A DNA stretch of 64,000 bases from Candidatus Latescibacterota bacterium (GTDB lineage: Bacteria > Latescibacterota > UBA2968 > GCA-2709665). This document shows, in pieces, positions 52,587 through 59,152 of the stretch. The notes below the pieces were generated by a model. It did not search any database and had not been told where the DNA came from. It saw only the letters and a list, made by a program, of their open reading frames with translations. How positions within the stretch are numbered: the first letter of the stretch is position 1; the number at the start of each line of letters is the position of its first letter. The stretch is taken from NCBI GenBank assembly GCA_965219455.1, contig OZ244744.1, positions 1,760,001 to 1,824,000 on the forward strand, in the 5' to 3' direction. Both the position numbers and the translations under genes were made by a program.

Positions 52587-53777
52587 TTAAGCAAAGTACC
52601 TCGGCCCCATCGCCGCGGGAGGGGTGCGTTCGATGGGATCGCCCGACCCGCGTTCGATGGCGAAGCCGATGGGCGCGGGGCCGGGGTCGTCGAAGCGCAC
52701 ATTGTAGGTCGTGCAGCCCCAGCGTGACCCTGCCGCGACGGCATCGAAGGCCTCAACGGTCCGCCGCTGGGGATCGTACGCGAGCCAGCCGTACAGGCTC
52801 AGCTTCAGGCCCCGGGGTTTGTCCACGGTAAGGCCGCTGAAGGGATTGCTCTCGAGCGTGGGTTCCGCTTCCAGGTGGATGCGTCCCTCCAGGCGGAGAC
52901 GGATTCGGTCGGATTCGGTGGATTCGACGGTCAGGCTTATCTCACCTTCTTTCAGGTTTTCTTCCCGCCAACCGGGCGATTGACCTCGCACCGTGTCGAT
53001 GAAGTGACGCAGGGCGAGCCGCCTCGTAAACCAGCCCGGTGCGCGATACGTCTGGCCGGGCCGGGCATTCTCGGGCGCCAGAGACCGGACCTCCTCTTCG
53101 GTAAACCATGCAAAGTCGATGTTGTGCCGGGTGTCCCCGTCTTCAGAATTCCTCGGCAGGTCGCGGACCGTGACCTTGAGCGCCAGGCCGTCTTCCGGAT
53201 AGGACCATCCGAGTCTGGGATCGACGGGGTAGGCTTCGGGGATGTCACCCGCTGCGCCGTTGTCCGGGCGTTCTCGCCACCCTGCCAGGCTCCGCTCGAG
53301 CATTTCCAAAAAAGGGCCGGCATCCCTCGTGTTGATGGACCCCAGCAACTCGCCGTCCGCCGTGCAGGCGTACAGGCCCTGCCGGGTTGCCGTGGGTTGG
53401 GTGCGGCCTCCGTAATGGCCCTGTTCGGCCACGAGGCGGAAGAACTCGCCCTTTGCGTCATTCTGCGTCTGGGTATAACTGCAATTATCCGCAACGGATA
53501 TGAAAGATCCGTTGAGGATCCGGATCACTTCAGGATGGGAGAAAACGGACTCACGGCCCGCTATACCGTTGTTTCAGACGCAGCCGAGCGGGTTGCCGTT
53601 CATCGACCAGATAAACAGCGGTCTGCGCACGGCAGCCGCGCGCCGTCGGGCTTTCCAGAGGTCGGTTTCCCAGGCGATGTCTGTCCACCGCACTTCCTCG
53701 GGTTTTGACTTGATCCGCGACAGTAGAGATTCAAACGTTCCGGGACGAGGCGTCCATTCCGATTGTTGAGTTGTCAT
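52587..53777 (-). CDS. Probable selenoprotein (~396 aa, Sec68) with thioredoxin-like N-terminal domain; split by the ORF finder into 53574-53819 and 52587-53528
   Basis: In-frame TGA at 53576-53574 in ...GNPLGCV-U-NNGIAGRESVFSHPEV...; the frame stays open into the next ORF, whose GTG lacks an RBS; RBS CAGGAG precedes ATG 53777. Confidence 0.8.
53545..53561 (-). promoter_or_regulatory. Candidate bacterial SECIS element
   Basis: GCGGGC-CGUGA-GUCCGU stem-loop starting 12 nt after the UGA; loop starts 18 nt after it with G at loop position 2. Confidence 0.6.
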
Positions 53778-53825
53778 ATCCATCTCCTGTTCAGTGTCCA
53801 ACTCCCTGAAACCTGCCATGATTCT

Positions 53826-54221: not shown

Positions 54222-54326
54222 CGCGCCCGCGGTCGTCGTGCATTGGCATCGCCAGTCCGTATGGCAATCCGCCTTTTGCCTTTCGTTTTTAGCTGACAGC
54301 TAACCGCTGATAGCTGATAGCTTCTT

Positions 54327-55091
54327 TTATCGCTTCAGGATCCCGCCGTTCACGTCGATCGTGGCGCCGGTGATATACGCGCCCATCCGGGAGGCAAGGA
54401 ATAAGGCCGAATAGGCGATTTCCTCGGGCTGCCCGATATAGCCCAGGGGGATAAGTTCGTTGATTGTGCTGCGGCTTTCGGGAGAAATCTGAAAGCTGGT
54501 TTCGATCACGCCCGGGGTGATGGCGTTGACCGTGATATTGCTCGAGGCCAGGTCCCGGGAGAGGGTTTTGGTCATGCCCAGCATGCCGGCCTTGGAACTG
54601 GCATAGTGGACCCCGCCTGAGACACCGCCGGTCTGGCCGCTGATGGAGGAGATGTTGATGATCCGGCCGCTTTTCTGTTTTTCCATGTGGGGGGCCGCGG
54701 CGAGGCAGCAGAGATACGCACCCGTGAGATTGGCGCCGATCACCCGCTGCCACTCTCCGTGGTCGACGCCGGAATAGTGACCCGGGCTGGCCAGGCCCGC
54801 GTTGTTTACCAGAATGTCGACGCGGCCGAAGGCTTCCAGTGTCCTTTGAACAAAGGCGTTGATCTGCCTCTCATCCGCGACGTCGGCGGGAACCGCAAGC
54901 ACGTCCCCGCGGGCCGAAAGCGTCTCGGCGACCGCCTCCAATGGACCGGCATTGCGCGCGACCAGGGTGAGGCCGGCGCCCGCCTGGTGGAAGACCTCGG
55001 CGATGCTTTTGCCGATGCCCCGGCTGGCGCCGGTGACGATGGCGACCTGTCCGGAAAGGTCGAGGAGGTCGGCAAGGGGTTTCGTTGACAT
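54327..55091 (-). CDS. SDR family oxidoreductase (FabG-like)
   Basis: TGASRGIG, NNAG, YASSK. Confidence 0.95.
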   Translation of the reverse strand: MSTKPLADLLDLSGQVAIVTGASRGIGKSIAEVFHQAGAGLTLVARNAGPLEAVAETLSARGDVLAVPADVADERQINAFVQRTLEAFGRVDILVNNAGLASPGHYSGVDHGEWQRVIGANLTGAYLCCLAAAPHMEKQKSGRIINISSISGQTGGVSGGVHYASSKAGMLGMTKTLSRDLASSNITVNAITPGVIETSFQISPESRSTINELIPLGYIGQPEEIAYSALFLASRMGAYITGATIDVNGGILKR

Positions 55092-55173: not shown

Positions 55174-57063
55174 TCAGATGAACTTGACGGTCTGGACTTC
55201 GCGGTTGGCCAGGCGAATGCCCCTGGCCCTGTTACCGCGAACGGGATATTCTGCGATGACGAATTCCTCTTCTGTGATTCTCACCCGGGGTTTGGGTTTG
55301 AAACGGGCCTGGATTGTGCGTTTGGTGTCGGTCGTGAGTTTCAGGATTCGGCAGTCTTCCGGCGCCAGTTCGTACCCCCGGTTCAGGATGAATCTGTCGA
55401 TTCTGCACCGTTTTATGTAAAGATATCCGGTCCTGGTCTCCTTATAGAGGATATTGTAGACGCGGTCTTCGTCCACGAAACCGCAGAAAAGCATGCCCTT
55501 ATCCACGAAGAGCTTTTCGGGGGCGTCCACCACGGAGTACATGCCGGTTTTTCGAATTACCAGAACGCGGTCGTACGGTGACACGTCGAAAAGGGCGCCG
55601 CCATTGACCTGGTGGCCCAGGTACCCTGTATTCTTGTCGTATCGCAGCATGAGATTGCGCTGGGCGGCCTCCCGAACGTCGACTTTCTGGATGCTTGTGA
55701 TCTCGGTTTTACGGGGGTGGTCGTTGCGATATTTCTTGATGATGCCCTCGAGAAACGCAACGGCGAACGCCTGCATGCCGCGCAGGTCGGCGCGGACCTC
55801 CCTGAGGCGCCTCCGGATATCCTGCATTTCCGCCTCGGCTTTGTTGATATCGTAGAGCGAGATGCGCCTGATCGGGATTTTGAGCAGGTTTTCCACGTCC
55901 TCCCGCGAAACTTCCCCCCTGATGCTCTCCTGGAAGGGTTTCAACCCATCGAACACCGCACGGTAGACACTCTCGGAGGTGGTCTCCTCTTCGATGCTTT
56001 TGTAAACGCGATTTTCAATAAAGACCTGTTCGAGGGTTTTCGCGTGATGCCGCGCGGTCAGCTGGCGTTCCTCGAGTTTGAGTTCAGTCCTGAGAATCTC
56101 GACGAGGCGGCCGGTGTTGTATTCGATCACTTCGGTCACGGACGTAATTTCCGGCCGGTTGTCCTGTATGACCAGCAGATTCGCCGATATCGACGTTTCA
56201 CAGTCCGTAAACGCGTACAGCGCGTGAACGGTATCCTTGGTATGCACACCGCGGGCGAGCTGGATTTCGATTTCCACCTGATCGGTCGTATAATCGCTGA
56301 TACCCGTGATTTTGAGCTTGCCTTTTTTGGTGGCGTCTTCGATGGAGGCAATGAGGGTTTCGGTTGTCGTGCCGTAGGGTAGTTCGCGCACGACGATGCG
56401 TTTCGGATCTCCGGTGTCCAGTCTGGCGCGGGCGAGAACCTTCCCGTTGCCGTCGTTATATTCGGAAACATCGACCAGGCCCCCTGTGGGAAAGTCGGGT
56501 TGGACCCCGAAGGGTTTGCCCTGCAGGCAGGCAATCTGCGCTTCGAGCAGTTCGATGAGGTTGTGCGGGAGAATGCGGGTGGTCATGCCGACGGCAATGC
56601 CCTCTGAGCCAATGGCAAGCAGGGCCGGGATTTTGGCGGGAAATGCGATCGGTTCACGGTTGCGGCCATCGTAGGAGTCTTCGTATTCGGTTATCTCGGG
56701 GTTGAAGAGAACCTCTCTTGCAAGTGGCGTGAGGCGGCATTCGATATAGCGTGCGGCGGAGGCTTCGTCGCCGGTGAAGATGTTGCCGAAATTGCCCTGC
56801 CTGTCGATGAACAATTCCTTGTTGGCCAGGTTCACGAGGGCGCCGAAGATTGAGAGGTCGCCGTGGGGATGGTACCGCATGGTCTGGCCCACGACGTTGG
56901 CGACCTTGTGGTACTTGCCGTCGTGCATCTCGTACAGGGCGTGCAGAATGCGACGCTGAACCGGCTTGAAGCCGTCGTCGATACTGGGGATCGCCCGGTT
57001 CTTGATGGAATAGGACGCAAACTCGAGATAATATTTTTCGTACAAGGTGTCGACGTATGCCAC
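55174..57063 (-). CDS. parC: Type IIA topoisomerase subunit A (topoisomerase IV ParC-like, short CTD)
   Basis: DGFKPVQRRIL, YHPHGD, AARYIE catalytic Tyr; 629 aa with no GyrA-box seen. Confidence 0.88.
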   Translation of the reverse strand: MAYVDTLYEKYYLEFASYSIKNRAIPSIDDGFKPVQRRILHALYEMHDGKYHKVANVVGQTMRYHPHGDLSIFGALVNLANKELFIDRQGNFGNIFTGDEASAARYIECRLTPLAREVLFNPEITEYEDSYDGRNREPIAFPAKIPALLAIGSEGIAVGMTTRILPHNLIELLEAQIACLQGKPFGVQPDFPTGGLVDVSEYNDGNGKVLARARLDTGDPKRIVVRELPYGTTTETLIASIEDATKKGKLKITGISDYTTDQVEIEIQLARGVHTKDTVHALYAFTDCETSISANLLVIQDNRPEITSVTEVIEYNTGRLVEILRTELKLEERQLTARHHAKTLEQVFIENRVYKSIEEETTSESVYRAVFDGLKPFQESIRGEVSREDVENLLKIPIRRISLYDINKAEAEMQDIRRRLREVRADLRGMQAFAVAFLEGIIKKYRNDHPRKTEITSIQKVDVREAAQRNLMLRYDKNTGYLGHQVNGGALFDVSPYDRVLVIRKTGMYSVVDAPEKLFVDKGMLFCGFVDEDRVYNILYKETRTGYLYIKRCRIDRFILNRGYELAPEDCRILKLTTDTKRTIQARFKPKPRVRITEEEFVIAEYPVRGNRARGIRLANREVQTVKFI

Positions 57064-57109
57064 GGTTTCTCCGGACCCCTGTATTCCTTGCAGGGGATCG
57101 ACGGGTTGT

Positions 57110-59011
57110 TCAGATCAGATTGTCGATAATGTAGTCCCTGCGTTCCGGGGTGTTCTTGCCCATGTAAAAACTGAGCGTATCGGCGATTTCGGAGATGGAC
57201 CTGATATTGACTTTGACCAGTCGTATATTGTCCCCGATGAACTGCCCGAATTCTTTGGGCGAGATCTCCCCGAGGCCTTTAAAGCGGGTGATTTCTGGAT
57301 TTTTGATATCCTCCAGGGCACTGTCGCGCTCCCGATTGTTGTAGCAGTAGCGGGTGACCTTGCTGTTTCGCACGCGGAAAAGCGGGGTTTCAAGAATGTA
57401 AAGGTGGCCGGCCAACACCAGTTCCTCGAAGTAGTTCAGGAAATACGTGAGGAGCAGGTACCGGATATGGTAGCCGTCATGGTCCGCATCGGTGGCGATG
57501 ACGATTTTGTTGAAACGCAGGTTTTCGATGCCGTCTTCGATGCCGAGCGCCATCATGAGGTTGAACAGTTCCACGTTCTTGTACACGGCTGCCTTGTTCT
57601 TGCCGAATACGTTCAGAGGAACGCCCTTGAGGCCGAAGATCGCCTGGCTGTAAACGTCGCGCGCGGCGACCATGGATCCCGCGGCGGAAGGGCCTTCGGT
57701 GATGAAGATCGTCGAGTCCTCGCCATGCTTTTTGTGGCCCAGGTGGTACTTGCAGTCTTTGAAATGCGGAATCTTGATTGCGATTTTTCGAGCGGCCTCT
57801 TTGGCCTCTTTCTTGACGGCGTTGAGTTCCTTCCTCAGACGTTCGTTCTGTGCGATTTTCTCGGACAGGCGTTGGGCCGCGGTCTGGTTCTTGTGCAGAA
57901 GGTCGACCACGGCGCTCTTGACGTCCGTGACAATCCACCCCCGGATATCCGTATTCCCCAGTTTGTTCTTGGTCTGAGACTCGAAGACAGGGGCCTTGAG
58001 TTTGACGGCGACGGCGCCCGAAATGCTCTCCCGAACGTCGATGCCGTTGTAGTTCTTCTTGTAGAATTCATTCACGCCCTTGAGGATGCCTTCGCGGAAT
58101 GCGCTCTGATGGGCCCCGCCGTCGCTGGTGCATTGGCCGTTGACGAAAGAGAAGTAGTTTTCCCCGTAGCTGGCCGTGTGGCTGAATGCGAACTCGAGGT
58201 ACTGCGATTTGTAATAGAGCGGTTCGTAGAGAGCCGTTTCGCCGACTTCGCGGGTGAGAAAGTCCAGCAGACCGTTCCGGGATACAAAGCGCTCCTTGTT
58301 GAAGACCAGCGCGAGCCCGCTGTTGAGGCAGGCGTAGTTCCACATCCGCTGTTTGACGTAGTCGAAATTGAACGCGAAGTCTTCCCCGAAAATCCGTACA
58401 TCCGGCAGAAATTCAAAATAGGAGCCGTCGGGTTCGCCGGGCTTCCGTCCTTCCTTTTTCCCTTTGAGACGCCCTCGTTCAAAACGCGCTTCGAGGTAGT
58501 TCCCTTCCCGGAAGGCAACCGCCCTGAAGTCCGAAGAGAGGGCGTTGACTGCCTTGGTGCCCACGCCGTTGAGGCCCACGCTGAACTGGAAGACATCGTC
58601 GTTGTACTTGGCGCCGGTGTTAATGATGGATACGCAGTCGATGACTTTGCCAAGGGGAATGCCGCGGCCGTAGTCCCGGACGCGGACCCGGTTGTCTTCG
58701 ATGCTGACGTCGATCGTTTTTCCGTAGCCCATGATGAATTCATCTACGGCATTGTCGATGACTTCCTTCAGCAGGACGTAGATGCCGTCATCGGGATTTG
58801 ACCCGTCGCCAAGCCGGCCGATATACATTCCGGTACGGAGGCGGATGTGTTCCAGGGAACTGAGCGTTTTGACCTTGGATTCATCGTACCCGTGTTCCGG
58901 CGATGCGCCATTTTTGCTCTTGCCGGACGATCTCGGGGTGGACGCGGGTTTCCCGTTAATGGAAAGCGAAAGCTGACCTGGACTCCGCAATTTCGATTTT
59001 GCTTCGGGCAT
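57110..59011 (-). CDS. parE: Type IIA topoisomerase subunit B (ParE-like)
   Basis: EHIR.R.GMYIG, EVIDNAVDE, DYGRGIP, TDADHDG, RFKGLGE. Confidence 0.9.
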   Translation of the reverse strand: MPEAKSKLRSPGQLSLSINGKPASTPRSSGKSKNGASPEHGYDESKVKTLSSLEHIRLRTGMYIGRLGDGSNPDDGIYVLLKEVIDNAVDEFIMGYGKTIDVSIEDNRVRVRDYGRGIPLGKVIDCVSIINTGAKYNDDVFQFSVGLNGVGTKAVNALSSDFRAVAFREGNYLEARFERGRLKGKKEGRKPGEPDGSYFEFLPDVRIFGEDFAFNFDYVKQRMWNYACLNSGLALVFNKERFVSRNGLLDFLTREVGETALYEPLYYKSQYLEFAFSHTASYGENYFSFVNGQCTSDGGAHQSAFREGILKGVNEFYKKNYNGIDVRESISGAVAVKLKAPVFESQTKNKLGNTDIRGWIVTDVKSAVVDLLHKNQTAAQRLSEKIAQNERLRKELNAVKKEAKEAARKIAIKIPHFKDCKYHLGHKKHGEDSTIFITEGPSAAGSMVAARDVYSQAIFGLKGVPLNVFGKNKAAVYKNVELFNLMMALGIEDGIENLRFNKIVIATDADHDGYHIRYLLLTYFLNYFEELVLAGHLYILETPLFRVRNSKVTRYCYNNRERDSALEDIKNPEITRFKGLGEISPKEFGQFIGDNIRLVKVNIRSISEIADTLSFYMGKNTPERRDYIIDNLI

Positions 59012-59152
59012 AACACACCTTTTCGGGGTCGCTCGAACGCGCAACCCCGCGCGGGGATGGTACAGACGGGGAGACAGTCGTACCCGACGTGGGCTCAGGA
59101 CGAAATGGGGCCTAAAGGGAACCTAACTGCGGGGAAATAAAGGGGAAAGAAA

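Follow-up and report, generated by a model that had tools for sequence, protein, structure and literature searches.

A two-domain bacterial selenoprotein with a C-x-U centre and a probable SelN-type selenocysteine domain

Can a bacterial protein be a rearranged counterpart of eukaryotic selenoprotein N (SelN), with the same two domains in swapped order? The question is raised by a gene on the minus strand of a 64,000-nucleotide stretch of the genome of a Candidatus Latescibacterota bacterium (assembly GCA_965219455.1, contig OZ244744.1, positions 1,760,001 to 1,824,000), referred to here as the window. A sequence-only reading of the window had taken the gene product to be a selenoprotein and a domain-permuted bacterial counterpart of SelN. 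The account that we consider likely is that the gene encodes one cytoplasmic selenoprotein belonging to a large bacterial family. The selenocysteine (Sec) domain of this protein would be a probable relative of the SelN-type Sec domain, and the protein as a whole would be neither an orthologue of SelN nor a permutation of it.

The gene and its parts, in window positions, are as follows.

52587..53819, minus strand: the selenoprotein gene, which opens at ATG 53819, counts 410 codons and ends with the stop TAA at 52587-52589
53574..53576, minus strand: in-frame TGA, the codon of selenocysteine 82, with a homologous TGA in 80/80 related loci
53580..53582, minus strand: Cys80, the presumed resolving partner of Sec82 in a C-x-U centre
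53544..53562, minus strand: hairpin resembling a bacterial selenocysteine insertion sequence (bSECIS), with a 7-bp stem, the loop CGUGA and covariation
53244..53708, minus strand: N-terminal domain with a thioredoxin-like fold (residues about 38-192), in which Sec82 stands at the head of helix 83-90
52590..53234, minus strand: C-terminal domain (residues 196-410), built from long antiparallel beta hairpins

When the minus strand is translated with TGA as U, the 410-codon frame contains a single TGA, at codon 82. Under translation table 11 the gene is read as an open reading frame (ORF) of 81 codons and another of 313 codons. The window peptides quoted by the sequence-only reading (ARRRAAAVRRPLFIW, LGCV-U-NNGIAGRESVFSHPEVIRILNGSFIS, ACTADGELLGSIN, GRIHLEA and LYGWLAYDPQRRTVEAF) are all present in the TGA=U translation of 52587-53819. 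The extent given there, 52587..53700, locates the gene correctly but places its 5' end too short, since the frame opens at ATG 53819. The ATG at 53777 (codon 15) appears to be the likelier start codon because GGAG lies 6 nucleotides 5' of it and because conservation among close relatives starts at '..IDMT'; a start there gives 396 codons. The gene is single-copy in its own genome, where the whole-gene profile scores it at 555 bits with 1 TGA.

Evidence that the TGA encodes selenocysteine can be provided by observing the same codon in relatives. A scan of a genome collection returned 247 candidate stretches, 179 of them encoding relatives, and the best 80 were retained as loci. They span Latescibacterota, Gemmatimonadota, Poribacteria, Chloroflexota, Planctomycetota, Bacillota and Armatimonadota. 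All 80 carry a TGA at the identical position within the motif NGxPLxC[VT]-U-NNG (79 by regular expression, and L047 read by eye), and the protein is conserved both before and after it. The residue two positions before Sec is Cys in 79/80 loci, always followed by V or T, and Ala in the remaining one (L026). In an alignment of 48 full-length sequences, the Sec column is invariant, as are W45, W50, W71, M73, N74, G75 and L78 before the TGA and G85 (Sec+3) and R89 (Sec+7) after it. That Sec is never replaced in this core clade argues that selenium is essential to the chemistry of the protein.

The RNA downstream of the codon is conserved as well. A hairpin begins 11 nucleotides past the UGA; counted from the U of UGA, nucleotides 15-21 pair with 27-33 and enclose the five-nucleotide loop CGUGA, which includes G23 and U24. 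The loop and its spacing would fit the bSECIS consensus. Covariation was measured over the 45 nucleotides 3' of the TGA in 73 distinct sequences, with a slid 3' partner and 500 shuffles as controls. Of the stem cells, 85.1% are paired, compared with 28.0-46.4% when the 3' partner is slid. Both sides have changed in 6/7 stem pairs, and the 64 doubly changed cells compare with 18.3 +/- 3.6 in the shuffles, none of which (0/500) reached the observed score.

The genome also encodes the means of inserting selenocysteine: selA (481 bits), selB (367 bits), selD (360 bits) and a tRNA-Sec at 4377535-4377632. The genes selA and selB adjoin the tRNA-Sec at G000:C1:4374337-4377632, and selD lies separately at G000:C1:3407174-3408097, with one in-frame TGA of its own. 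A bacterial selenoprotein is recognized by a conserved in-frame UGA, a stem-loop with G/U in its apical loop, and selA, selB, selD and tRNA-Sec in the genome, and all of these are found here. On this comparative evidence, codon 82 is almost certainly read as selenocysteine. The earlier claim that the gene encodes a selenoprotein is thus borne out by the 80/80 TGA codons, the covarying hairpin and the complete Sec machinery.

Alternatively, the TGA could be a genuine stop codon, leaving two separate small genes or a pseudogene. This is how gene callers annotate the locus, and it agrees with the databases, where relatives are nearly all 'hypothetical' proteins of 300-340 residues that begin past the TGA (in one, P0114, the codon is read as W). 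A true stop would nevertheless have to coexist with a TGA and a frame conserved on either side of it in 80/80 loci across phyla, with a covarying hairpin 3' of it, with a complete Sec machinery, and with what is predicted to be a single thioredoxin domain fold spanning the codon. We regard a true stop as extremely improbable.

What kind of protein is this selenoprotein? Its AlphaFold model is confident, with a predicted local distance difference test score (pLDDT) of 88.4 and a predicted template modelling score (pTM) of 0.88. In the model, residues ~38-192 form a thioredoxin fold in which Sec82 heads helix 83-90, and residues 196-410 form long antiparallel hairpins. The modelled N-terminal domain falls in the Thioredoxin_7/DsbH class of thioredoxin folds, and the predicted structure shows the features of the Thioredoxin_7/Thioredox_DsbH subclass. 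The C-terminal beta domain is without a clear solved relative, and it accompanies the thioredoxin domain in every case.

Sequence searches place the protein outside the named families. The window protein has 0 matches in Pfam, NCBIfam and PDB sequences at E <= 10, and PDB sequence searches of the family returned nothing or noise, such as matches to protein G at E >= 0.08. Weak matches to Thioredox_DsbH (PF03190) are found in 5/48 members (best E 0.0072). No match reaches the Pfam gathering threshold of PF13899 or PF03190, and the PF13899 profile, run on the same genome, does not pick up the gene at E <= 1.

The family is nonetheless large. An exhaustive profile search found 3207 representative proteins at E <= 0.001, 522 of them at E <= 1e-30, and the best 150 of the 3207 are all members of the window-protein family. 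It is absent from Pfam, from NCBIfam and from the entries examined of a 2026 list of 119 prokaryotic selenoprotein families, most of which the Pfam and NCBIfam scans cover. Literature searches returned no paper on this family or on bacterial SelN homologues. The two-domain family is a widespread, unnamed and uncatalogued bacterial redox protein. Gene callers break its gene into two pieces in practically all genomes, which leaves a family of thousands of representatives invisible in annotation. Cataloguing it would correct the selenoproteome counts of Latescibacterota, Chloroflexota, Planctomycetota and other phyla.

A crude rule based on hydrophobicity finds an N-terminus resembling a signal peptide in 28/80 loci, mainly in Planctomycetota and in some Poribacteria. 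By the same rule, the window protein and its clade have neither a signal-peptide-like nor a hydrophobic N-terminus. Some relatives are fusions (P0134, P0203, P0206, P0212, P0199, P0140). In four of the 11 long relatives, a non-Sec form of the two-domain module is C-terminal to a Ser/Thr protein kinase. One of the 11, a distant relative of Sec type, has a C-terminal EF-hand (P0199), and one relative has a PQQ-like beta-propeller.

A mechanism can be proposed from the arrangement of the active site. UGA 82 would be read as Sec by SelB with Sec-tRNA. Sec82 occupies the usual position of the attacking residue, with Cys80 two residues upstream, and given this placement the protein may be a thiol/selenol oxidoreductase whose cycle passes through a selenenylsulfide between Cys80 and Sec82. 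The beta domain would be a substrate- or partner-binding module. In human SEPN1, as a passage of PMC7474598 describes it, U428 attacks and the C427S/U428C protein is a substrate-trapping mutant. By analogy, the chemistry proposed for Cys80-Sec82 would be like this published trapping chemistry of Cys427-Sec428.

A comparison with SelN was made possible by a second family of bacterial selenoproteins, found in Poribacteria. Its genes were recovered as weak, one-TGA matches of the N-domain profile of the window family in Poribacteria genomes (loci L165, L167, L171 and L174-L203, from genomes G137, G143, G131 and others). In 3/10 regions examined, a long N-terminal part with the strings VFRIHAEF and FTGRLILNR..G.IRDF is followed by the thioredoxin-like region, which comes last. 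The C-terminal motif is ..WG..DDESC-U-[GA][ST]GK.LR....LS....I..LN..FVN, in which Cys and Sec are adjacent. With one member as query, 45/61 Poribacteria genomes give matches, a single genome as many as 18, and every match listed has one TGA, with 3 exceptions. The genes have a conserved hairpin of their own about 20 nucleotides past the UGA, with the loop GGUC or AGUU. Fusions occur in some members, with an ECF sigma factor at the N-terminal end or a TlpA-like redoxin at the C-terminal end. Thirty of these Poribacteria proteins were aligned (alignment A6), and in the alignment R312 is invariant and G308 nearly so.

The Poribacteria strings are close to the motifs that the sequence-only reading gives, as unverified, for human SELENON. 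The family may be labelled SelN-like on a further ground, since its Cys-Sec adjacency agrees with the adjacent Cys427-Sec428 pair of human SelN given in a passage of PMC7474598. In all comparisons below, A6 stands in for animal SelN. Protein searches with SelN-like queries returned Poribacteria proteins only and no animal SelN, and a search with a table-11 relative as query returned only the window family or generic DUF255/Thioredoxin clusters. The presumed SELENON motifs were not found in the literature text or in one supplement, and degenerate DNA patterns built from the presumed motif C-U-G-S-G gave chance-level matches only.

Two other groups of selenoproteins turned up among the loci. In one (L127, L164, L166, L168-L170, L172, L173), an exported Thioredoxin_7 domain with the motif D-W-U-G-x-C (UxxC) is fused to TPR-like repeats, with one TGA in each gene; these Thioredoxin_7-TPR proteins serve as a control family. 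The other (L143, L147, L148, L152, L163) consists of Thioredoxin_7/PDZ proteins with F-R-U-x-x-U (two TGA) or F-R-C-V-P-U, which probably belong to the Trx7/PDZ selenoprotein family given as NF041199 in PMC13188914. TGA-bearing Thioredoxin_7 matches in Poribacteria were rejected, as they are other selenoprotein families.

How close is the Sec domain of the window family to that of the SelN-like proteins? In hhalign, the window family aligns with A6 over the thioredoxin domains only, at a probability of 95.8% (E 6.7e-9, 135 columns). Sec falls on Sec and Cys on Cys, with the intervening V or T as an insertion. Controls from the same genomes gave 93.6% (E 2.1e-7) for the window family against Thioredoxin_7-TPR and 66.1% (E 5.6e-5) against DUF255, and 84.1% (E 7.4e-6) and 94.9% (E 4.3e-8) for the SelN-like family against the same two. 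In a matrix of six thioredoxin_7-like families, compared by domain only and with 5-9 sequences in each control family, the window and SelN-like families are reciprocal best partners. With the window family as query, the SelN-like family scores 67.2, narrowly above Thioredoxin_7-TPR at 61.3. With the SelN-like family as query, the window family scores 85.2 (E 5.7e-14) and DUF255 far lower, at 59.7 (E 1.7e-9).

Both families also have Gly at Sec+3 and Arg at Sec+7. Judged from these alignments, the SelN-type Sec domain probably has its nearest relative among Thioredoxin_7-like domains in the Sec domain of the window protein. The suggestion of the sequence-only reading that the Sec-bearing domain is SelN-like holds in part: it agrees with the Poribacteria proxy by hhalign probability and by reciprocal best score, but on one side the margin over generic families is narrow.

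Several results weigh against the account given here. At the RNA level, the single-sequence fold of the 86 nucleotides after the TGA is not better than shuffles (z -0.34), and the Rfam scan gave no SECIS match. The presumed kinship of the Poribacteria family with animal SelN rests on the unverified SELENON motifs and on the published Cys-Sec adjacency. The window family scores 61.3-69.9 against Thioredoxin_7-TPR in the matrix, near its 67.2 against the SelN-like family; its hidden Markov model (HMM) gives SelN-like proteins 15-19 bits, no more than the 17-22 bits of the Thioredoxin_7-TPR proteins, and the SelN-like HMM misses the window gene at E <= 1 in its own genome. In distant paralogues Sec gives way to C, A, R, G, D or N, and Cys80 is missing from some of them too. 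Because of these non-Sec paralogues, and because 4/11 long relatives carry the two-domain module behind Ser/Thr kinases, the module can work without redox chemistry, perhaps as a sensor.

In an alternative explanation, the window protein is a generic selenoprotein of the Thioredoxin_7-like kind and has no particular link to SelN, the shared residues after Sec being features of the whole group and Sec having been recruited independently. The Thioredoxin_7-TPR proteins are nearly as good a match to the window family as the SelN-like proteins are, by the hhalign and matrix scores given above (61.3 and 69.9 in the latter). DUF255 proteins of the same genomes also show '..RESF.D..I....N..FV.[IV]KVD' after the active site, a protein-language-model search named DUF255, Thioredoxin_2 and Thioredoxin_7 as the nearest clusters (scores 0.76-0.82), and the weak Thioredox_DsbH matches of the five members point the same way. 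What this explanation accounts for poorly is that a SelN-like query ranks the window family best by four to five orders of magnitude in E-value. Nor does it readily account for the placement of Sec in both families at the start of a helix, preceded closely by Cys and lacking a Cys at +3 (the U/CxxC families differ in this), or for the shared Gly and Arg. We therefore hold a generic origin to be possible but doubtful.

The remaining explanation is the one that the sequence-only reading proposed: both halves of the window protein would be homologous to SelN, and their order would be swapped. For the Sec half, the 95.8% alignment speaks in its favour. For the other half, the evidence comes from the C-terminal domain. 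Its best local alignment with the N-domain of the SelN-like family falls on the very hairpin that had been named, LSLYGWLAYDPQRRTVEAFDA against AQFTGRLILNRNSGTIRDFWL (residues 340-360 against FTGRLILNR..G.IRDF), and in both families an R-I-H strand lies ahead of the hairpin, so that the two elements are collinear. This alignment, however, covers just 21 columns, with a P of 0.06 and a probability of 0.9%, and the C-terminal domain compared with the whole SelN-like family reaches 3.2%. The coincidence of the hairpin is not evidence for a permutation, though it is worth a structural test. In addition, the window family has C-x-U in all loci that have the Cys (79/80) and never an adjacent C-U, and bacteria possess SelN-like proteins with the collinear domain order. 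Because such collinear proteins exist, the window family is not 'the' bacterial counterpart of SelN. A permutation is accordingly improbable, the C-terminal domain having no significant match to the SelN-like N-domain, and by sequence comparison the whole protein is neither an orthologue nor a circular permutation of SelN.

With a SelN-type relationship of the Sec domain as the preferred reading, likenesses and differences to SelN can be set out, the Poribacteria proxy serving for the sequence features. In both families a thioredoxin-like domain holds Sec at the head of a helix; a Cys shortly precedes it, and position +3 is not Cys. Past the site, both have a '..V/I I..LN..FV' helix-strand in addition to Gly at Sec+3 and Arg at Sec+7. 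The hhalign probabilities for the two Sec domains are 95.8-98.2%, and each family has an intragenic hairpin 3' of the UGA. The families differ in the spacing of the Cys, since SelN has an adjacent C-U (C427-U428 in the human protein, as the same passage of PMC7474598 states) and the window family C-x-U. They also differ in layout: the thioredoxin domain comes last in the SelN-like proteins and first in the window protein, and the second domains match at 3.2% or less. SelN has an N-terminal membrane anchor and an EF-hand, according to section 2.3 of PMC10650576 and a passage of PMC7474598. Neither an EF-hand nor a membrane anchor or lipoprotein signal is present in the window protein (Pfam at E <= 10; no hydrophobic N-terminus).

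The Cys-x-Sec family and the SelN-type Cys-Sec family may, as a tentative proposal, descend from one Sec-bearing thioredoxin_7-like bacterial ancestor, with Sec retained throughout. If so, the redox module of a human muscle-disease protein would be of bacterial origin, and the chemistry of the SelN active site would have a tractable model in a bacterial protein that is abundant, often cytoplasmic and single-copy. If the Sec domain is the nearest relative of that of SelN, this soluble bacterial protein could be used to probe the function of the Cys-(x)-Sec centre.

Resemblances to other thioredoxin-like proteins are looser. Domains of the Thioredoxin_7, Thioredox_DsbH (DUF255), AGR and UAS families are represented in the PDB by 3f9u, 3ira, 2ju5, 7tkv, 3ph9 and 2dlx. 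The window family differs from them in having C-x-U and no CxxC, in an extra insertion, AEQGHY..GR...P.T.TRQG, and in the constant fusion of its domain to a 215-residue beta domain; the window protein, moreover, matches nothing in Pfam.

The only curated selenoprotein families matched are the VPGUxxT thioredoxin-like (seleno)proteins NF041382 and NF041383, by 17 and 7 of the 48 members. These matches cover the region around the Sec site, and the profile is of similar length (349 positions). The best E-values are 0.0034 and 7e-5, however, one relative reaches 14.2 bits where the cut-off is 350 (NF041382), and the window protein gives no match. NF041382 was not above its cut-off in five genomes. 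A CxU motif also occurs in a published thioredoxin-like protein (PF13192), but the domain family is different: PF13192 is matched at E <= 10 neither by the window protein nor by any of the 48 members.

The surroundings of the gene are variable. An SDR-family (FabG-like) gene at 54327-55091 (minus strand) adjoins the selenoprotein gene, and such genes are found at 26/80 loci, in three phyla and at differing positions. An operon context was considered and rejected, as this is the only recurrent neighbour and its orientation varies. The adjacency may be due to chance, SDR genes being so common. In the intergenic region upstream, at 54254-54333 (plus strand), the Rfam scan gave a fluoride-riboswitch match that stays below threshold, at 18 bits where the gathering score is 34 (E 0.078), and is probably due to chance. 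Farther upstream, at 55174-59044 (minus strand), two long ORFs resemble the A and B subunits of a type IIA topoisomerase, as read from their translations alone. The ORF resembling the A subunit is found again in the 13 closest loci.
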